IMG/VR virus record: IMGVR_UViG_3300037510_000305 | Location: 1-28,509 of that record | Direction: 5' to 3' (one strand) | From: a virus | Taxonomy: Duplodnaviria; Caudoviricetes | Length of the DNA: 28,509 nucleotides | Part shown: piece after piece, positions 7,766 to 16,282 of the stretch | Layout: every line of letters begins with the position of its first letter | How positions within the stretch are numbered: position 1 is the first letter of the stretch | Notes under the pieces: generated by a model | What the model was told of the DNA's origin: nothing | Database searches by the model: none | The model's input: the letters and a program-made list of their open reading frames with translations, nothing else | Translations under genes and position numbers: made by a program

Positions 7766-8164
7766 TTAGCTCACCGCAGGGGCTGCGCCCGTAAGGCCAA
7801 GCGAACCAGTGCCTGGCGTAACATTATGCGCCTGACGTACAATGGGCGTCTGTCCTGTTAGCGCAAGAGCCGCGACAGCAGGTCTACGAATCATGACTTG
7901 GACGACTGTTGGAGAATAGCCAGTCAGCGACAAGCGTCCAACATCCGGCACAGGAATATCCTGATATCGAACTTTTACTGCGCCATTCGTGTGATACAAC
8001 ATCCCTTTCGTCACACCGTTTTTCGCAGCAGTCAGCTCATCTGCATAGTTCCGATCGCTGCAGTAGAGGTCACCGAAATTATCTTCAACGTTTTGCCGAA
8101 GTTCCAAGTCCTCCGCATCGTTGAGCTTGCTGCCACCGTAGAGATTCAAATTCCTGCGAGCCAT
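7766..8164 (-). CDS. Virion protein with small N-terminal domain and three ~22-aa P..G.L.LTG..P.V repeats
   Basis: 'NYADELTAAKNGVTKGMLYHTNGAVKVR' motif, then three repeats matching those in 11030..12604. Translationally coupled to TerL. Confidence 0.7.
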   Translation of the reverse strand: MARRNLNLYGGSKLNDAEDLELRQNVEDNFGDLYCSDRNYADELTAAKNGVTKGMLYHTNGAVKVRYQDIPVPDVGRLSLTGYSPTVVQVMIRRPAVAALALTGQTPIVRQAHNVTPGTGSLGLTGAAPAVS

Positions 8165-9714
8165 TATGGCGCACCTTCTGTAAATACGAGGTCAGGGATC
8201 GCAGCTTCTTCCTGCGCGATCATGTCGTCAGCAGCTGCTTCGGGATCAGTGCCATCTGTTGGTACAAACATCCAGGGATTCATCGCACAAATCCCCATCG
8301 CTCCAGCGTCACCCAAGTCCCAATCAACGTTGTCCTGATAATCTGTGAATCCAGTCACAAACTCAGTGTGATTCTCATGCACCCAGATCTTGCCGTTTGA
8401 GGCGAGGTCCGTATACGCCTGACGAATGCGGTCAGGCTTCGAGCGCTTGTCATTGAACTCTCGAATCGTGAAGTAGAAGTTGTTCTCCTGCATCTTCGTT
8501 TTGAAGTACCAGGCGAGCATCTTTTGGAAGGCGACTGTTTCTACAGCAAACTCGCGTGGGCGATACGTGCGCTTGATACGATAGATCCAGTTCCACATTT
8601 CCTCAGGATTCTTTCCACGATCCGCAAAGTACTCGATTAGGTATATGTCACCAGTTCGACGGTGGAACCCCCAAACGACAATTGCCGTCTTATGAGCCTG
8701 CTTCCTTTTGGAATCTGACGCAGGATCGAGACCGACCCAGTATTCGAGATCGACAGGTAAAGAGGTCCAGTACCTGAGCCAGCCTGCGTCGAACGCGCTC
8801 GTCTCTTTCGAGATGATTTTACACCCATACTCCCTGAGCCAGATGTGATACTGTCTTCGTCGGATGTAGTTTTCACGTTCAGCCAAAACCTCTTCTAGCG
8901 GGTACCTTTCTTCCCACGCGCTTAGCGGCGCACCCGTGATCTTATCATATACCAGCTTCGGATATTTCACCGTGAAGAAGGTAGGATCTTTGTGCGCCTT
9001 GTTGATAATGTCATCCTTGTGCAGCCCGGTTTGCAGCAACACAAGTTTTCGGCCTGGAGCTTCACTCTTCGCAGCCATCGCAGGGACAATGGTTCCGAAG
9101 AATGTCGTTTCCTGTTTCTCTAGCTGTTCAGGCGTGCCGCAAGTTTCCTCATTACTAATGTCGTCAGCGATTATAAAGTCTGGCCGCCAGTCATCGAAGT
9201 TCAAACCTCGAATACCCGAGGTCATACCCAGCGCGACAATGTTGATCTTTATGTCGTACGCTGCATTGATCACTTCGATCCAGGTATCTGTCCACTTATC
9301 ACCTTTCCTGATATCGAAGAGTTCGGCCCAGTAGGTTCTGGCTTCGACCTGTCGCTTGATCCATCTAACCGTATGCGAAGCCATCGTCTCATTGATCGCA
9401 ACTGCGAGTGTGTTGCGCGTGAGCCCGAACCCGATTCGCTTGGAGAGACCAGCTCGTGTGAGGGTCGTCTTAGCGCCTCCTCTAAACACTTCCGCGCCAA
9501 AGAAGTCTCTTTCCGGATTGTTGAAGTGATACCAGTAGTCACGATGCCACTCCGGACTTTTTTGCCTGAAAGTTTTTGGAAACATCTGCCGGCAGTAGAA
9601 AAGGTCGTCCACCGCGCAGAGTTTCAGTACCTCTGCACGGGAAAGGACCATTCTATCTGGCGCGGCGACGACTGCGTTCATCTTAGTTCCATTTAATCCC
9701 AGGAACGGCGACAC
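8164..9714 (-). CDS. terL: Terminase large subunit
   Basis: Walker A-like 'FRGGAKTT', Walker B 'FIIADD', RNase H-like 'VGLDPA', 'VETVAFQ', 'KPDRI', 'DLGDA'. Confidence 0.92.
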   Translation of the reverse strand: MSPFLGLNGTKMNAVVAAPDRMVLSRAEVLKLCAVDDLFYCRQMFPKTFRQKSPEWHRDYWYHFNNPERDFFGAEVFRGGAKTTLTRAGLSKRIGFGLTRNTLAVAINETMASHTVRWIKRQVEARTYWAELFDIRKGDKWTDTWIEVINAAYDIKINIVALGMTSGIRGLNFDDWRPDFIIADDISNEETCGTPEQLEKQETTFFGTIVPAMAAKSEAPGRKLVLLQTGLHKDDIINKAHKDPTFFTVKYPKLVYDKITGAPLSAWEERYPLEEVLAERENYIRRRQYHIWLREYGCKIISKETSAFDAGWLRYWTSLPVDLEYWVGLDPASDSKRKQAHKTAIVVWGFHRRTGDIYLIEYFADRGKNPEEMWNWIYRIKRTYRPREFAVETVAFQKMLAWYFKTKMQENNFYFTIREFNDKRSKPDRIRQAYTDLASNGKIWVHENHTEFVTGFTDYQDNVDWDLGDAGAMGICAMNPWMFVPTDGTDPEAAADDMIAQEEAAIPDLVFTEGAP

Positions 9715-10090
9715 GTTTTGTAGCGCTTGGCGGCGGTGGCGGTGTTGCCTTGCAGCTGCTTGGACTCTTGTCGCTCAACGTACTCTTTCCATCTGGACCG
9801 ATCAGGACCCTGTTGTTCGTCAGATCGTACACTCCAGCTCTCGCATAGATACAAGTCACGCCATCGGGAATGTCGGTCCTCATTCCCGCAAGATTGAAGG
9901 TACTGAACAATTGCTTGTCGTCGCTCACACTGTAGACGATGTAGACGAGTTGTTCTGTCCCAAAGGCTGTTCCATCCTCGTAGCCCGTCGGTTTCGTGAT
10001 GCTGTAGCTCATCGTCTGAGCTGCGAAAGCTGTAGAGATCAGTAGGAGTGGCCATAAAACCTTACCAATGCTTCGGAAGGATGTGAACAT
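9683..10090 (-). CDS. Secreted/periplasmic protein with signal peptide (FN3/Ig-like)
   Basis: 'KVLWPLLLISTAFA|AQ' signal peptidase I-like site, 'TKPTGYEDGT' FN3-like start, two Cys. Confidence 0.6.
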   Translation of the reverse strand: MFTSFRSIGKVLWPLLLISTAFAAQTMSYSITKPTGYEDGTAFGTEQLVYIVYSVSDDKQLFSTFNLAGMRTDIPDGVTCIYARAGVYDLTNNRVLIGPDGKSTLSDKSPSSCKATPPPPPSATKRVAVPGIKWN

Positions 10091-10577
10091 TGAATCTATC
10101 CTCTCTTACTAAATCCAGGTTCTCAATGAAATTGCACTGAGTCGGGAACGACGTGTGCGGGTCGCACCAGCGGACAATTTCGCAGACACTGAGCGACCAG
10201 AATCTTTGGTCAGTGAGCCAAGCTCGCACGACCGGCAAGTACAGATTTTCCGTTTGCCAGTAAGCCTCTGGCGTATGTCGGAGCTTGCATTCAACAACCA
10301 CAAGGTTGCGTCTTTTGTGATCTGCAAGAAGACCGTCAAGCTGACAGTATCTTGTCCCGCTGGATCCATCCCCATAAGCAAACCACATCCCCGCGAAGTA
10401 TGAAAGCTCGTAGAGCTCAGTGAGGTACTCAGCGACCTGTCGCTCATGCTTGATCCCCTTCTTCTGCAGGTGTCCCTTCGCTTCCAGTGGCTTGAAGGGG
10501 AGTTCCTTTGGCAAGATACTCCTGACCCAAGTCGGTCTGACTCGGTGCTGGTAGCGCTGGCTGCTTTCCGCTCTCAT
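10062..10577 (-). CDS. PD-(D/E)XK nuclease (resolvase-like)
   Basis: 'G.KHE', 'QLDGLL', 'VVVECK' and 'AYWQ' motif order. Lies between TerS and TerL. Confidence 0.7.
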   Translation of the reverse strand: MRAESSQRYQHRVRPTWVRSILPKELPFKPLEAKGHLQKKGIKHERQVAEYLTELYELSYFAGMWFAYGDGSSGTRYCQLDGLLADHKRRNLVVVECKLRHTPEAYWQTENLYLPVVRAWLTDQRFWSLSVCEIVRWCDPHTSFPTQCNFIENLDLVREDRFNVHILPKHW

Positions 10578-11037
10578 CTATCGTGACTCCGATTTGAGGG
10601 CGCTCTGCTCGGCCCAGCAGTGCCTTGGCCTCATCCAACTCACTTCGCAGCGTGTTCACCTGCGTGTTGTTTGTCTGGTTCATGATGAAGGTGTTTCCAC
10701 CCTTTGAACCGAACCCAAGTCTATCCAGCACACCTTCGGCTGTCTTCGACAGTGTGCTAAGATCACCTTCAACCTGAACCTTCTCGATCATCCGATCCAG
10801 CGCAAGCGACGCGACACCAAGCATCTTTTCCCTGATCGGCATCACAGTGTTGTGAAAAATCACACCCTGTTTATCCCGCAGCATCGCCTGAAACGCGTCA
10901 CTATGGATGATCTGACTCAACCAGCCCTGCGTGTAGTTAAAGGCCTTTGCAATCTCTCCAAGCGACACACCTGGATTCGCCAGCATGTAGTCCATGATCG
11001 AGTTGTGCGTATGGGAAACTCGCTGAATCTCAGCCAC
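10444..11037 (-). CDS. Putative terminase small subunit (HTH)
   Basis: N-terminal HTH 'NPGVSLGEIAKAFNYTQGWLSQII', helical middle, 'VLDRLGFG'. Upstream of TerL. Confidence 0.65.
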   Translation of the reverse strand: MAEIQRVSHTHNSIMDYMLANPGVSLGEIAKAFNYTQGWLSQIIHSDAFQAMLRDKQGVIFHNTVMPIREKMLGVASLALDRMIEKVQVEGDLSTLSKTAEGVLDRLGFGSKGGNTFIMNQTNNTQVNTLRSELDEAKALLGRAERPQIGVTIDESGKQPALPAPSQTDLGQEYLAKGTPLQATGSEGTPAEEGDQA

Positions 11038-12604
11038 GATAGTACCTCAAAGGATTTCTAACAGGGCGACGCAAGGACCGTCGTGCAGCCTGTCGAACAA
11101 CTAGCCCACTTCCACCATCTGTACCATCGCCACCACCAGTCCCGCCGCCGACAGCCAACTGACCAGAGAATACGAGCTCGCCTGTAGGTGGCTGAATGAT
11201 GATCGGGACACGGACGCTCGGCGCTACGCCAGTTAGCCCCAGCGTTCCACTCGCAGGCTGAATAATCACGCCTCGACGAACGACAGGCGCGATGCCTGTA
11301 AGTGCAAGGCTCGCTGCCGCTGGTCGCGTGACGTTTACGCCAGAGATAATTGGCGCTGCGCCTGTCAATCCCAGCGTTGCCGTACCCGGCCGAATAAACA
11401 GCACGCCCTGCACAAAGGGTGTCTGGCCTGTCGTGGTTAACGCACCTGTTGCTGGGCGGATGATAATTCCGCCAGGCATCTGCGGCGCATTTCCAGTAAT
11501 CGTCAGGCTTCCTGCCGAGGGGCGAATGACAAACCCCTGACGAACAGACGGTGCGTAGCCCTGCAGCGTTAGCGAGGCGCTGGTCGGCGTCTTGATAAAC
11601 TGCTGGGTAACAACAGGCGCGGAACCTGCAAGCGCAACACTTCCTGTCTGCGGAGCCTGGACAGTGAGAGTCTGAACTGCAACTGCGCCCGTTATCGTCA
11701 GCGAGCCAGTCGGCGGCCGAATCGTAGCAGGAGACTGAATCTGCGGCGTCAGTCCTGTAATGCTCAGCGATCCCGTTCCAGGGATTCGCACATGCGCGAG
11801 CATGACAACAGGCGTCTGACCGACAAGGGCTAATGCGCCTGTGTTCGGTCGCACAGTGCCAGTGATCTGCACCTGTGGCGCTTGACCAGAGAACGCGAGC
11901 GAGCCAGCAGCAGGCGTTCTATTGAACTGCTGGGTAAGCTGCGGTGCTGCGCCAGCAATTACCAACGCCCCTGTTAGTGGCTTGATGACGCGCAGTTGGA
12001 CTGTCGGCGCATAGCCCTGCAGTGCCAGTGTGCCAACTGCTGGCGTGATTGTCAGGCCCGACGAAAGGTCTCCACCACTCCAGTTATCCATCCGGGTGGT
12101 GTCATTGCCAAACCCAGAGATACCCGGGTTGCCGCTTGAATACGTCGCATCGCTTGCGTTAAGCGCGCTGATCAACGTATACGTGCCAGACCCACTAGCC
12201 TTACGGTACACACGCAGGTTAGTGCCAGTCACTTCCAGGCGACAAACATCTCCTACCGCCCACGTGACTGTAGAGTTTGTTACCTGCGCAAGTGTGCTGA
12301 AAGACCCGCTCGTCAGCTTGGCAAGATACGTTTCCGTATCATTCAGCTCAATAATATAACCCGTGTTGCTTCCACTGCAACGAACAGCGGGTCCAACGTA
12401 CGAGCTGCCGAGGACAACGATCTCGATTTCAGAATACTGCGTCGCATTGAACGTGCCGCTGTACCAAGCGCAAACGTCATTGCTAGTGTTGACATAACAC
12501 TGCGATGCATTGGTCTGAAAGTCCCCCGTCGTACCAACATTCCACAGCGGGTTGTATGCTTCGAGGTTCTGGCTACTGCCGGCTTCAAAATTATCTGATG
12601 CCAT
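11030..12604 (-). CDS. Virion fibre-like protein: ConA-like/lectin N-domain, 14 x ~22-aa repeats, Gly linker and Arg-rich C-terminal peptide
   Basis: N-domain 'ASDNF...GPAVR...GDVCRLEVTGTNLRVY...DATYSSGNPGI...DNWSGG' is a beta-sandwich pattern; repeats counted directly. Start placed at MASDNF. Confidence 0.75.
   Translation of the reverse strand: MASDNFEAGSSQNLEAYNPLWNVGTTGDFQTNASQCYVNTSNDVCAWYSGTFNATQYSEIEIVVLGSSYVGPAVRCSGSNTGYIIELNDTETYLAKLTSGSFSTLAQVTNSTVTWAVGDVCRLEVTGTNLRVYRKASGSGTYTLISALNASDATYSSGNPGISGFGNDTTRMDNWSGGDLSSGLTITPAVGTLALQGYAPTVQLRVIKPLTGALVIAGAAPQLTQQFNRTPAAGSLAFSGQAPQVQITGTVRPNTGALALVGQTPVVMLAHVRIPGTGSLSITGLTPQIQSPATIRPPTGSLTITGAVAVQTLTVQAPQTGSVALAGSAPVVTQQFIKTPTSASLTLQGYAPSVRQGFVIRPSAGSLTITGNAPQMPGGIIIRPATGALTTTGQTPFVQGVLFIRPGTATLGLTGAAPIISGVNVTRPAAASLALTGIAPVVRRGVIIQPASGTLGLTGVAPSVRVPIIIQPPTGELVFSGQLAVGGGTGGGDGTDGGSGLVVRQAARRSLRRPVRNPLRYYRG
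11150..12058 (-). repeat. 14 tandem ~22-codon protein repeats, consensus xxxRPxxGxLxLTGxAPxV
   Basis: Examples: TITPAVGTLALQGYAPTV, VIRPSAGSLTITGNAPQM, FIRPGTATLGLTGAAPII. Diverged at DNA level. Confidence 0.9.
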
Positions 12605-12605
12605 G

Positions 12606-13724
12606 TTATGCAGCCACAAACTGCCCAATACGCAGGTCGGAACCGTTGTTCTTAATCACGTAGAGATACTTCCCTGTAAATGAGGGAAGTGCGCCCTGCC
12701 TGACGTAGAATGAAATGGCATTGGTTGCCCATGCGGTCGGGATCTGAATCTCAAGCGCGCGAGTTGAGGCGGTGCTCCACGTAGGAGCATCTGACACCAT
12801 AACTCTGGACAAGGAGTCGTCTACGTAGATGCAATCGTAGTACAAGTGCATGGACGAGGTTCCGTCCAAGCCTTCAAACTGATGCGCGAAAAGCTGATCG
12901 AATGCGTCCGGCCAGCCTGATGTACGCCCTGCCCCCGTGTATGTCGTGACAAGTTGCCCTTGCTCGTACACTTTCGTACTGGTATTGTTCCCGTTAACCG
13001 TGCCTTGAAACAGGTGGTATTCCTGCGTCAACCACACGTTCTTGGGGAGGCCCATCCCCCAGCCATCATGGTTGGAGCCTCCATCCGTAAACTCGTAGAA
13101 AAGAACTGGATTGTCGTTGTTTTGACCGGCCTCTAAATCGCCGTATCCAGTCTTGAGGTCGTGTCCGGAACCACCGACACCACCACCCCAGACTCGCCAA
13201 CCTTTCAGGTTCCACGAAAGCCCATCGGACGCATTCGCCTCTACGTAGTTGAAGTCCGTCCGCCACTTCGCGAACAGATACATGTCCGTAAAGGTCAGCG
13301 GCATACCATCGATGACAGCAGCCTGTCCTGCGTTTGGCGCGGTGACTCGATAGTTAGCTACAGAGTTTGTAGCTAACACATCAGTTTGTATCGACCCAAA
13401 CTGCGGGCCGTTACCAGTGTTAGTCTGCCAAGACGTATTACGGCTTAGCGGATCGAGCGAAGTCGATCCGGTCCTTCCTACATCCCAATACCAGGCAGGC
13501 TTAACGCCATTCGGCTTTACGTCAAAGGCGTTTAAAGCTGAGGTGATCGTTACGATCTGTCCATTGCTAAACGTACCAGATGCTCCGTAGTTTGCGTCTG
13601 GTACAAAAGCAACCGCGCCCCCACCACCTGCTTGCGCAGGGTCGCGAGTCATCGAGATGTTCCATCCCCCACGCTGTCGGAACCTGCGAGGAAGATAGAG
13701 ATTGCGCTTGGGGACGAGGATCAT
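12606..13724 (-). CDS. Polysaccharide lyase-like / carbohydrate-binding beta-sandwich virion protein
   Basis: GGAGA RBS before MILVPKRN; basic leader and Gly linker; 'YLFAKWR', 'NLKGWRVW', 'WLTQEY', 'LYYDCIYVD' and an Ig-like C-terminal part. Confidence 0.55.
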   Translation of the reverse strand: MILVPKRNLYLPRRFRQRGGWNISMTRDPAQAGGGGAVAFVPDANYGASGTFSNGQIVTITSALNAFDVKPNGVKPAWYWDVGRTGSTSLDPLSRNTSWQTNTGNGPQFGSIQTDVLATNSVANYRVTAPNAGQAAVIDGMPLTFTDMYLFAKWRTDFNYVEANASDGLSWNLKGWRVWGGGVGGSGHDLKTGYGDLEAGQNNDNPVLFYEFTDGGSNHDGWGMGLPKNVWLTQEYHLFQGTVNGNNTSTKVYEQGQLVTTYTGAGRTSGWPDAFDQLFAHQFEGLDGTSSMHLYYDCIYVDDSLSRVMVSDAPTWSTASTRALEIQIPTAWATNAISFYVRQGALPSFTGKYLYVIKNNGSDLRIGQFVAA

Positions 13725-13730
13725 ACTTTC

Positions 13731-13763
13731 TCCAGGCTGGGGGCGACGGCCACCCCCGCTGGA
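13731..13763. promoter_or_regulatory. GC-rich intergenic hairpin overlapping the RBS of 12606..13724
   Basis: Minus strand TCCAG-CGGGGG-TGGCCGTCG-CCCCC-AGC-CTGGA then GAAAGTATG. On the plus strand it is followed by TTTTCCTTT. Confidence 0.6.
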
Positions 13764-13773
13764 TTTTCCTTTC

Positions 13774-14241
13774 TCACGCCAGCGTAAATACGCCAGTCGT
13801 CGCCGGACCAACCGTCAGCGTGTTGCCCGACGCAACCGTAAACGCTGCCGTCGAAAGGCTGCAGAAGCACAGCACCTTGCCCGCACCAGCACCGGTCGAG
13901 TTCCGGATAAGCGCGTACTTGATGTTGTTCAAGCTGGCGCCCGATCCCGTAAACACAAGTCCGGCCGTGGTGTACGTGAACTTGTACTGCTTCGCAGAGG
14001 CACCAACCGTCCACTGCGCAGTAGCTGGGACAAGATTTCGACCGCCGGCAGCATATCCGCCGGTAGCTGAAATCTCACCTGGGATCGAAGTGTTAGTGCT
14101 TCGGGTGGAGAGGACAAGAATTGCAGCTGAAGCGGATGCTCGATGCAGCTGCATCTTGAACACGCCGGCACCAAGGGTGATGGTGCCGTTGCCAATATAT
14201 TTCTTGGCTTTGGCATAGATTTTCCAAGGGCCAGCGGCCAT
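13774..14241 (-). CDS. 155-aa beta-rich virion structural protein (putative fibre subunit)
   Basis: 'WKIYAKAKKYIGNGTITL....FKMQL', 'EISATGGYAAGG..L', 'YALI', 'TVASGNTLTV...GVFTLA', a pattern common in phage structural modules. AGGAG RBS. Confidence 0.75.
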   Translation of the reverse strand: MAAGPWKIYAKAKKYIGNGTITLGAGVFKMQLHRASASAAILVLSTRSTNTSIPGEISATGGYAAGGRNLVPATAQWTVGASAKQYKFTYTTAGLVFTGSGASLNNIKYALIRNSTGAGAGKVLCFCSLSTAAFTVASGNTLTVGPATTGVFTLA

Positions 14242-14252
14242 TTGGGTTTCTC

Positions 14253-15896
14253 CTAAGCGAGAGTCATGATCTCCTCATCCGCCGCTTCAGCCCCGGCTTC
14301 GAGGATGGCTGCAAGGAGACCAGGCCCCTTGACATCCAGCTCGATGACGTGACCGTAGAGGCGAATGAGGTCCATAAACTCCTGTGCCTGCGAAATCATC
14401 CAGGGATGGCACTTGAATACCTTCCCCCGAACGGTTACAGGAATCACAGGAGCGTTGTCATTCTCCGGCTGGAGATATGCATGATGTTCGTCAGTCATAC
14501 CATGAACAGTAGCTTCTACTTCTGCCGGCAGGAGGCATGAATCACACCCAATGAGGTGGAACTTCCTAAATCCCATCATTGTCAGCACGCAAATCGCACG
14601 CAGAAGTACTGTACTTCCACCACTCGCATCGAAGTACAAGCCCCGATGCTTGTGTAGAAGATCCTCAATACTCTTAACCGCAACATGGAACAGAAAGGTC
14701 CGATTCTTCGGCAGATTTTCCAGCACACTTGGATGAACCTGCGAAGCGCAGAAGTAAAGGTTATTCTCGCTAATCGGCTCAACAAACCGCTTGTTGAACT
14801 CCCGCGCATCGACGAGGAACTGATTCACAGGCGTGTTGGGCATCCATTCGCGAAGCCAGTTGCCTGCACCATTCAGCGTGACGACCTTACACCCCGCGCC
14901 AATGAGCTGACGAATCTCGTCCTTCGAGTCCTTGAGGCTTGGCCCGCCGCCGAGGATCAGCACTTCCGTATCATTCGTCTGGTGCGGGCCGATGTCCGTC
15001 CACGGACCCTGTAGATTCACCTCAACATTCTTCCTGATCTGCTCCATCGTCTCCGTCAGTTCAAACGGCTGCTCCTGCACTTTCTTCCCTGTATCCCAGG
15101 CAGTGCAGAAGATCATGCAGTGCGTGCCAAAGTCCCTTGACCATGTAATCCTCGCACCGCACTTCTGCAGCCTCTCCACCCACCACGCGTAGGGCTGAAC
15201 TGTGAGATGGAGTTTCTCCCCTATCAACTTCCCACACTGGTCTTCTTCACACGAGATCTGGAAGAACACGTGCTGCGCGGAGTGTAAGATGTTAACTAAT
15301 ACGGTGGTGACCCACTCAGGAGGAATGTGCTCCATCACATCCGTGCAATAGCCGTACTCAGCGTGGTGGGGGATCGGCTTAATGAGGTTGCAGGTTTCAA
15401 AGCTCAAAAGCGGCTGAGTCTTCAGCGCCTCTCGCACAAAGTCATCCAGGCAGTTCGAGGCGAAGTCCAGCATCTTCACCTTAAGCCCACCGAGTGCCGC
15501 GAGCATCACAGCGCCTCGCCCAGTCCCTGTGCCGAAGTCGATTACTTGCGCTCCTTCGCGGGGCCTCACGACGTCCATGAACATCGTAGCGCAGGTTTCT
15601 CCCGGCGCGACCTGGCGGTATTCCTCTTTCCCCCACATTTCCTCGTAAATCGCTTGGTGGCTTTTCTCCACCTTAACAACGGGGGGATGCCCTACGTAGC
15701 CGGCGAAGCCCGTGGTGCTTTCCAGCCCCTGCAACTCCGCCTGGCTCTTCTCCGCATCCGCATTAAGCGCCTGGACTTCCGCCTGCGCTGGTGTTGGCTG
15801 AAACGTCGGGCTTGTGTCGAGCGTCGGCGTCGTGTCGAGCAAATTATCGTGCATCTCTATATCCTCATAATAAGTGTATTGTGGTTCAGTCTGCAT
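14253..15896 (-). CDS. Fusion of class I SAM methyltransferase and Maf/DUF115-like (glycosyltransferase-like) domain
   Basis: MTase motifs 'VIDFGTGTGRG' and 'YGYCTDVMEHIP'; Maf-like motifs 'VLILGGGPSL', 'VVTLNGA', 'GGSTVLLRA...GFRKFHLIGCDSC'. Confidence 0.8.
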   Translation of the reverse strand: MQTEPQYTYYEDIEMHDNLLDTTPTLDTSPTFQPTPAQAEVQALNADAEKSQAELQGLESTTGFAGYVGHPPVVKVEKSHQAIYEEMWGKEEYRQVAPGETCATMFMDVVRPREGAQVIDFGTGTGRGAVMLAALGGLKVKMLDFASNCLDDFVREALKTQPLLSFETCNLIKPIPHHAEYGYCTDVMEHIPPEWVTTVLVNILHSAQHVFFQISCEEDQCGKLIGEKLHLTVQPYAWWVERLQKCGARITWSRDFGTHCMIFCTAWDTGKKVQEQPFELTETMEQIRKNVEVNLQGPWTDIGPHQTNDTEVLILGGGPSLKDSKDEIRQLIGAGCKVVTLNGAGNWLREWMPNTPVNQFLVDAREFNKRFVEPISENNLYFCASQVHPSVLENLPKNRTFLFHVAVKSIEDLLHKHRGLYFDASGGSTVLLRAICVLTMMGFRKFHLIGCDSCLLPAEVEATVHGMTDEHHAYLQPENDNAPVIPVTVRGKVFKCHPWMISQAQEFMDLIRLYGHVIELDVKGPGLLAAILEAGAEAADEEIMTLA

Positions 15897-15922
15897 ATCT
15901 GTTGCACGGCCAGACGGCCGCG

Positions 15923-16282
15923 CTAATCCATGCTTCCGTAGAGCTCGAACCCCGCCGCCGTCGCGCCCTTCTGCACGAACTTCAACGCTCTATACTGCCC
16001 GAAGAAGTAATAGAGCCTGTTCGCGCTGGCGGTTGCGACGAACGTTCCTTGCACCTCTGTCACGTTGTCTGAGGCGTCGACGGCGGGCTCGAGGCTCAGC
16101 ACAAGGGGCGCCGTCGGGTAGTTCGTCCCGTCCAGGCTCGCGAAGACCCTGATCGTTCCGGCCGTCCGCCGCAGCACGAACCGCCGCAGGTGGCGAATCT
16201 GCCCCTCTTTGACGACTAAAAGCGTGGCCCCGTCGACAGTCCCGCCGGCCGCTATGGTCTTCACAAGGTCGATGGCGCTCAT
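15923..16282 (-). CDS. Small beta-rich protein, possible capsid vertex decoration / spike base
   Basis: GGAGG RBS; first gene of the late arm; 'GTIRVFASLDGTNY' and 'YRALKFV' jelly-roll-like motifs. Confidence 0.6.
   Translation of the reverse strand: MSAIDLVKTIAAGGTVDGATLLVVKEGQIRHLRRFVLRRTAGTIRVFASLDGTNYPTAPLVLSLEPAVDASDNVTEVQGTFVATASANRLYYFFGQYRALKFVQKGATAAGFELYGSMD

Follow-up and report, generated by a model that had tools for sequence, protein, structure and literature searches.

We analyzed in silico the IMG/VR virus record IMGVR_UViG_3300037510_000305 over its full 28,509 nucleotides (the window), which covers most of the genome of a podophage, and here report on five tightly packed minus-strand genes at 11030..16282 (Table 1). 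Our favored reading, held with a little more than even confidence, is that these genes encode a chain-like virion fiber together with a Maf-like enzyme that modifies the fiber subunits. The parts of this reading differ in strength. By analogy with solved fibers, it is very likely that dimers of a subunit with the gp80 fold (the “bead”) sit on the repeats of a “rope” protein. A modification of the fiber by the enzyme is probable, and whether the enzyme would use a cytidine monophosphate (CMP)-activated 2-keto acid sugar, again by analogy, we regard as evenly balanced. The rope-and-bead architecture itself is already published (the GP4, VP1 and A1002 fibers are solved), so that novelty of the filament proposed in a preliminary description of this DNA is not supported. 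In the literature searched (subscription papers aside) the undescribed part is the coupling of enzyme and fiber; virion glycosylation by other phages is known.

All five open reading frames (ORFs) were verified at these coordinates, as were the 14 repeats of approximately 22 amino acids (aa) noted in the preliminary description. Given the likely starts (15854 for the enzyme, with a GAGG site; 13724 or later for the 372-aa gene; 12604 for the repeat protein) the intergenic gaps measure 1-68 nucleotides (nt), and the end of the repeat-protein gene overlaps the start of the following gene.

The repeat protein, which we regard as the rope, comprises 524 aa: a 184-aa N-terminal domain, the 14 repeats (residues 186-489) and a Gly-rich basic tail with eight Lys/Arg among the last 34 residues. 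At lag 22 the mean BLOSUM62 self-score is 1.32, compared to a maximum of -0.22 over 500 shuffles. A profile of 388 distinct repeats yields the consensus I-T-P-x-x-G-[AS]-L-x-L-x-G-x-A-P-x-V, and a spacing of 22 residues is by far the commonest (502 spacings), with 44 as the runner-up (79). The rope repeats are basic and rich in Ser/Thr (15 Lys/Arg, one Asp/Glu). For comparison the best 80 of 152 confirmed viral bead loci were kept (given here with L numbers); one of them, L001, is the same phage, many belong to one clade, and 63 bead sequences are distinct. At 68 of the 80 loci there are repeat proteins (2-37 repeats, both termini variable), which bears out the expected co-occurrence of the repeat and 155-aa families, and at 12 loci no repeat protein lies within the available DNA. 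From homology and co-occurrence, the earlier proposal that the repeat protein is a template whose repeat number sets the number of subunits is likely to be correct.

The ends of the rope vary. Its C-termini differ by phage group, with a similar tail in L002 and unrelated tails elsewhere. The N-terminal domain has homologues in the database protein P0392 (37%) and in L061, both followed by rope-like sequence. Its former label as a lectin is less secure: the domain is present, but Pfam, PHROG, NCBIfam and PDB searches gave no match. P0392 (783 aa) contains two copies of this domain and a different, Ser/Ile-rich repetitive tract, which suggests payload swapping between rope types. A second rope gene with three repeats, outside the range of the preliminary description and not recorded in it, lies between terminase and portal (repeat hidden Markov model (HMM), E 1.7e-16) and is also found on the L002 contig; in the related phage L192 the terminase abuts the portal and this site holds no short rope gene. 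Single rope repeats are tagged onto payload proteins in L006, L055 and L061, and proteins with two or three repeats also exist. The rope gene L072:8529-10496 is present as two ORFs of 13 repeats each and in the near-identical L073 as one ORF with 25; an assembly error or a frameshift may lie behind the split. In three further cases (L019:4624-5172, L058:1648-2265, L061:6450-7067) 3-4 rope repeats are joined to a C-terminal jelly-roll-looking domain, a possible vertex or collar anchor. No repeat-number variants were found in contigs from four sequencing runs, which were short and uninformative, and PDB searches for bead and rope (single sequence and profile) gave chance matches or none.

The 155-aa protein, the candidate bead, belongs to phrog_644, a family of unknown function (PHROG E 5e-10) with 1971 related clusters. 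It contains 13 Lys/Arg, a single acidic residue and 21% Ser/Thr. A monomer model from 125 sequences reached a predicted local distance difference test score (pLDDT) of 87.7 and a predicted template modeling score (pTM) of 0.85. The top seven rows of the VIA structure comparison are all phage virion chains from tail, neck or baseplate: KP1 baseplate (Z 12.3), Bxb1 tail-tip (8.8), GP4 gp80 (8jou_a; Z 8.4, root-mean-square deviation (rmsd) 3.3, 125 of 136 aligned), Sf14 neck, HFTV1 tail, phi812 baseplate and a 7-7-1 tail-fiber chain. A pilin is absent among the 50 VIA rows listed, and the viral Foldseek matches of the model are phage proteins. The model points with moderate strength to a membership of the 155-aa protein in the gp80 fold class. 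We further observed that at many loci the gene immediately ahead of the enzyme encodes another phrog_644 bead, which is acidic (L062:6152-6562 and 28 other distinct genes); with such paired acidic and basic beads one rope may bear two bead types, as in A1002.

The proposed arrangement closely follows the fiber of the Pseudomonas podophage A1002, in which, according to the accessible part of PMC13730344, 11 dimers of gp80-like subunits (gp40/gp41) are held on the rope gp39, each via an augmented beta-sheet. There, the fiber-dock residues 243-468 (plus 3-32 and 96-107) carry the 11 dimers, a globular terminal domain forms the distal end, and the C-terminus is anchored in the nozzle. For GP4 fiber I the same source gives five dimers on a separate rope, which extends from the tail to dock on the capsid; in the VP1 fiber three dimers are resolved. 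Dividing the dock residue ranges by 11 leads to 20-24 rope residues per A1002 dimer. This matches the period of 22 found here, and the templated filament thus corresponds to the published architecture, with dimers and not single subunits on the rope. Two bead paralogues, as in many relatives of the present locus, are a further likeness, as are the N-terminal tip domain and the C-terminal anchor, both presumed here. Given the same polarity as in gp39, the earlier placement of the N-terminal domain at the tip and of the C-terminal peptide at the anchor is likely. In contrast, the rope of A1002 carries fused nozzle parts whereas the present one ends in a short basic peptide, and the accessible text describes no modifying enzyme for the A1002 fiber.

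GP4 fiber I (PDB 8JOU, PF23140; Ralstonia host) likewise stems from a podovirus, shares the predicted subunit fold, and has a periodic Gly/Ala-rich gene that is preceded by the gene of the small subunit. It differs in that significant sequence similarity is absent, in that five dimers face 14 repeats here, and in that no Maf-like gene is annotated in the 17 kb viewed, tblastn of the enzyme on GP4 giving no match. The 325-aa rope candidate of GP4 shows a weak period of 20 and is unmatched by the repeat profile. In the rope of KPP25, whose proteins have the same length as those of A1002, proline-marked segments are spaced 19-23 residues apart (by eye). The Pfam Gp77 adaptor was found neither in the 26 window ORFs nor in five ORFs of a contig extension. 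Unrelated phages also have rope and bead genes as direct neighbors: bead and repeat matches lie side by side in cluster F mycobacteriophages, and in the cultured M. smegmatis phage Estave1, for which an enzyme of this kind was not found, the 5-repeat gene gp20 (E 4e-7) is adjacent to the bead gene gp21 (E 3e-34).

The enzyme consists of an N-terminal class I methyltransferase domain followed by PF01973 (46.4 bits, cut-off 34.6), which confirms the methyltransferase/Maf-like fusion seen before. Its model (pLDDT 85.7) has Maf 5MU5 as the top VIA row (Z 20.7, 338 aligned across both domains, rmsd 11.2 from a domain shift); methyltransferases come next at Z <=19.9. Foldseek places Maf 5MU5 second, and phosphoethanolamine N-methyltransferases lead the methyltransferase matches. 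By profile comparison Maf scores better (E 1e-4 over 186 positions) than MptE 8sd5 (E 0.056 over 71), and MptE was therefore rejected as the closest solved relative. The residues D363, T429 and D452 (numbered on the 547-aa ORF with start 15896) and the DxGxGTG motif are invariant in 42 of 42 aligned enzymes. A hand count on the alignment maps Maf E324 and D415, reported as critical in the accessible part of 10.1101/2020.06.03.131540 (one passage swaps the residue types), to the two invariant Asp D363 and D452, and T429 corresponds to the conserved Ser/Thr near these catalytic acids. According to the same text, Maf transfers 3-deoxy-D-manno-oct-2-ulosonic acid (Kdo) and N-acetylneuraminic acid (Neu5Ac) to Ser/Thr and accepts CMP-Kdo.

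The phage enzyme thus shares with the flagellin O-glycosyltransferase Maf of M. magneticum (5MU5) a methyltransferase-like N-domain and a GT42-like central domain in the same order, together with both catalytic acids and the nearby Ser/Thr. It differs in its intact S-adenosylmethionine (SAM) motif; the N-domain of Maf is described as degenerate methyltransferase-like (PMC11339370, accessible part). It also ends shortly after the glycosyltransferase domain, without the C-terminal helical/tetratricopeptide repeat (TPR) domain of Maf, and is phage-encoded in a late operon, not a flagellar locus, with a beta-rich fiber subunit instead of flagellin as its neighbor. No membrane segment is evident in the model, and no sugar-pathway genes were matched among the 26 ORFs scanned. 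Near the N-terminus of the enzyme (residues ~58-78) a rope-repeat-like motif is the best-scoring site, with 2.1 bits compared to a median of 29 and a 5th percentile of 17 for true repeats; among 59 enzymes this motif ranks first in 21 with a half-repeat matrix and in 9 with the full matrix, which is weak support for a rope-like tag. An extra N-terminal dual-specificity phosphatase domain (PF00782) occurs in L002:3370-5313 and in several database homologues. Virion glycosyltransferases of the Che8 type belong to other transferase families. Like the enzyme as proposed here, those of mycobacteriophages such as Che8 are phage-encoded transferases acting on virion proteins, but their targets are major capsid proteins and their genes lie near the genome end (PMC11256854, accessible part).

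Gene linkage supports a functional connection. At 79 of the 80 loci the enzyme gene precedes the bead gene, the exception having only ~200 nt upstream; the distance is <60 nt in 62 loci, <300 nt in 69 and <1.8 kb in all 79. The modifying enzyme of the preliminary description does therefore travel with the subunit. In the converse search from the enzyme, whose profile was derived from bead-linked enzymes and which retained the best 80 of 490, 69 new loci were counted; 63 contain a full enzyme, and in all 57 of those with >=700 nt downstream a bead follows. The pair persists across very different genome contexts while the neighbors change, and beads at enzyme-linked loci are 67-95% identical. 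Enzyme homologues matched 1142 protein clusters, and we estimate that ~1600 IMG/VR stretches contain the pattern. No full-length enzyme match was found among 50,697 GenBank phage records, and no report of a phage Maf/DUF115 enzyme in the literature searched.

Genome contigs with a full-length enzyme and no bead gene (nine of ten viewed) revealed a second arrangement. The domain order is reversed in four of the four Pfam-scanned, and in seven of the nine viewed a small gene precedes the enzyme; the two small genes scanned both fall into a family of head-associated virion proteins. Such reversed-order PF01973-methyltransferase fusions (L162:7941-9320, L164:3935-5317, L166:7923-9254, L168, L170, L173, L174, L181) stand mostly right after the capsid gene and a small head-associated gene (phrog_29386). 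Both enzyme clades thus sit beside a small virion protein.

A further hint arises from the charge of the beads. Enzyme-linked beads have a net charge of +6 to +15 (60 distinct sequences; median one acidic residue), whereas the canonical beads that immediately precede the enzyme at these loci range from 0 to -6 (n=29); for Estave1 gp21 and GP4 gp80 the net charge is negative or close to zero. At the Thr22 and Thr91 sites Ser/Thr occurs in 97-100% of the linked clade compared to 2-7% of distant beads. The basic character of the enzyme-linked beads is consistent with a neutralization by added acidic sugars.

The following sequence of events is proposed. In the cytoplasm, bead dimers would load on each 22-aa rope repeat via beta-sheet augmentation, as judged from A1002 and GP4; with one dimer per repeat, the long rope would hold ~28 subunits and the short one ~6. 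The fiber would end in the N-terminal domain of the rope, which, together with the 372-aa payload, might bind surface glycans, while the rope C-terminus would be anchored, probably close to where head and tail meet. Gram-negative bacteria in general possess CMP-Kdo. The enzyme, staying in the cytoplasm, could take a CMP-2-keto acid sugar (Kdo or a nonulosonic acid) from the host and O-glycosylate surface Ser/Thr of the bead, and its SAM domain may then methylate the transferred sugar.

Several observations weigh against this reading. The Z of 8.4 for gp80 is just above the background range and the best VIA row is the KP1 baseplate protein. hhalign of the 155-aa family with gp80 gave a probability of 0.8%, the family profile has no PDB match, and Foldseek on PDB returned none at E<=0.001. 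The Pfam family Gp80 (PF23140) is matched by only one of 125 family members (E 9e-4) and by the 155-aa protein itself not at all at E<=0.05; gp80 is assigned to phrog_240. The rope shows no sequence similarity to the 325-aa candidate of GP4 or to KPP25 ORF005, nor the bead to KPP25 ORF006/007. The 7-7-1 paper, in its accessible part, describes garland homodimers of the same fold class and mentions no rope, which calls for caution as the fold serves other uses. Concerning the enzyme, the C-terminal helical domain of Maf is missing, rope-bead pairs without an enzyme exist, and the bead gene accompanies only 10 of 20 full-length enzymes on genome contigs. The linked loci are not independent since many come from one clade and L001 is the same phage, and the converse count, obtained with a bead-linked profile and the best 80 of 490, is biased to the bead-linked clade and overlaps the first set. 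The charge contrast is one between two clades, distant beads of unassigned linkage reach +13, and the small virion neighbors of reversed-order enzymes are not markedly basic (-6 to +4). Basic beads could instead bind acidic host polysaccharide.

It is in this light that other explanations have to be weighed. The fiber may be as described while the enzyme acts elsewhere, on host lipopolysaccharide or capsule for exclusion, as an MptE-type pyrophosphokinase or on nucleic acid, and merely co-travels in the late operon. Besides the rope-bead pairs without an enzyme and the enzymes without a bead gene just mentioned, this is favored by the lack of the C-terminal domain, since acceptor binding by Maf requires a TPR or GlfM part (10.1101/2023.12.03.569772, accessible part), by the phosphatase domain of some homologues and by the archaeal MptE kinases that PF01973 also contains. 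We nevertheless consider it unlikely, as the pair is kept across changing contexts, Maf outranks MptE, the model lacks an evident membrane segment, and the reversed-order clade, too, is found beside a small virion gene. There is less probability still in an enzyme that modifies the virion but targets rope or payload, or that adds some methylated or phosphorylated group instead of a keto-acid sugar. The basic, Ser/Thr-rich composition of the rope repeats, the leading phosphoethanolamine N-methyltransferase matches and the phosphatase fusions would fit such a function. It is the bead, however, and not the variable rope or payload that is fixed beside the enzyme and unusually conserved, and beads would largely cover the rope strands.

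Regarding the architecture, the preliminary description favored a donor-strand mechanism of the pilus type, with one repeat supplying the missing strand of one subunit and the 119-aa protein serving as the capsid-mounted base of the filament. Proline-bounded repeats with alternating hydrophobic residues, the predicted jelly roll of the 119-aa protein, the docking of GP4 fiber I onto the capsid, and the domain joined to the 3-4 repeats of L019, L058 and L061, in which a similar SxDGxN motif is seen by eye, speak for it; the HMM comparison of these domains with the 119-aa protein was not significant (E 0.28-0.37). But the subunit models confidently alone and matches gp80, whose solved relatives are dimers, which speaks against completion of one subunit by one repeat. 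Solved ropes begin at the tail adaptor or nozzle, and related loci almost never contain the 119-aa gene: its only homologue, on the L002/L082 contig, represents one other phage in 190 loci. Anchoring on the capsid through this protein is therefore unsupported, and while the C-terminal peptide may well be the anchor, its docking on a 119-aa base is not borne out. In chaperone-usher pili the donor strand is the subunit's own N-terminal extension, and chaperone and usher genes are present; here the repeats are on a separate protein and no chaperone or usher Pfam match was found in the 26 ORFs. Donor-strand assembly thus appears improbable. Least probable are repeats that fold on their own as a beta-helix or trimeric fiber, next to an independent garland or baseplate-type dimer of the 155-aa protein. 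The fold class has such uses without a rope (the 7-7-1 garland, baseplate domains), and the 12 bead loci without a repeat protein would agree with it. Single-repeat tags and proteins with two or three repeats are, however, too short for a self-folding solenoid, and the adjacency of rope and bead genes in unrelated phages argues against independence.

Among the accessory genes, the 119-aa protein has XepA as its nearest named Atlas cluster (score 0.91, family on 32% of members) and F5/F8-like structure rows with template modeling (TM) scores of 0.51-0.57. For the 372-aa protein, formerly called lyase/lectin-like, a jelly-roll/PL14-like fold is indeed predicted, but its Atlas structure rows (PL14/PL/LamG, TM 0.52-0.55) stay under the bar for naming; one homologue (44%) is found in L020 among the 80 loci. 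Both genes are regarded as accessory because each occurs in only one other phage. The payload genes after the bead share an N-terminal W-N/D-I motif by eye (window 13724-13640 (-), L002, L004, L005, L006, L055), and the 372-aa protein carries at its start a basic LxPxRxL motif similar, again by eye, to the C-terminus of the single-repeat protein L061:11634-12461.

The podovirus type of the genome follows from SU10-type portal, capsid and adaptor matches in family searches of the window ORFs. The terminase and lysis genes are on the minus strand, and an identical IMG/VR contig adds a nozzle-sized gene, a conventional fiber with an S74 chaperone domain and more late genes. The stretch was detected in five sequencing runs; three of the five contain at least half of its words, all three labeled soil metagenome and one of them possibly the source, and no RNA data set is listed among the runs. 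Between the repeat protein and the terminase large subunit (8164-9714) three small genes intervene (10444-11037, 10062-10577, 9683-10090). The last of these (minus strand, 135 aa), directly upstream of the terminase, has an apparent signal peptide and a proline-rich tail, with neither a family match nor a counterpart in L192. A promoter and terminator scan gave a site count not above shuffles. The terminase search found two other close phages only. The record of L192 has no bead match; as its completeness is ~72% and it breaks off immediately upstream of the small genes, this is uninformative on a loss.

Table 1. Features of the fiber locus and the second rope gene, in window coordinates.
Feature	Position	Strand	Basis or remark
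Protein of 119 aa, predicted jelly roll with weak XepA/F5-F8 likeness; possibly a base or decoration protein	15923..16282	-	structure comparison
533-aa SAM methyltransferase-Maf/PF01973 glycosyltransferase fusion	14253..15854 (ORF to 15896)	-	Pfam, model, VIA
155-aa candidate fiber bead subunit, phrog_644, predicted gp80-like fold	13774..14241	-	PHROG, model, VIA
Variable payload protein, ~350-372 aa, predicted ConA/polysaccharide-lyase-like jelly roll	12606..13724	-	start uncertain
Rope protein N-terminal domain, 184 aa, presumed tip domain	12053..12604	-	two homologues with rope-like sequence after it
14 rope repeats, ~22 aa each	11138..12049	-	repeat profile, periodicity
Rope Gly-rich linker and basic C-terminal peptide, presumed anchor	11030..11137	-	similar tail in L002
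Second short rope protein, 132 aa, three C-terminal repeats (7769-7948)	7766..8164	-	repeat HMM

In its widest form, which we put forward tentatively and with some doubt, the proposal is that of a mobile and widespread two-gene cassette. It would pair a Maf-derived O-glycosyltransferase/methyltransferase with a dedicated basic subunit, the enzyme docking by an N-terminal strand that mimics the rope, so that fibers become coated with methylated Kdo or nonulosonic acid of host origin; the reversed-order sister clade would act likewise on a capsid decoration protein. If so, phages would have adopted glycosylation of the flagellin type as a means to mask or adjust their surface. The compact pair of enzyme and substrate could, if real, possibly provide a new tool for protein sialylation or Kdo transfer. 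The previously unassigned family phrog_644 receives a likely role as fiber bead, and the simple rule that the number of repeats sets the number of beads is also relevant to the cultured cluster F mycobacteriophages. Should the enzyme modify the fiber, phage-encoded O-glycosylation of the flagellin type would be common in uncultured phages.

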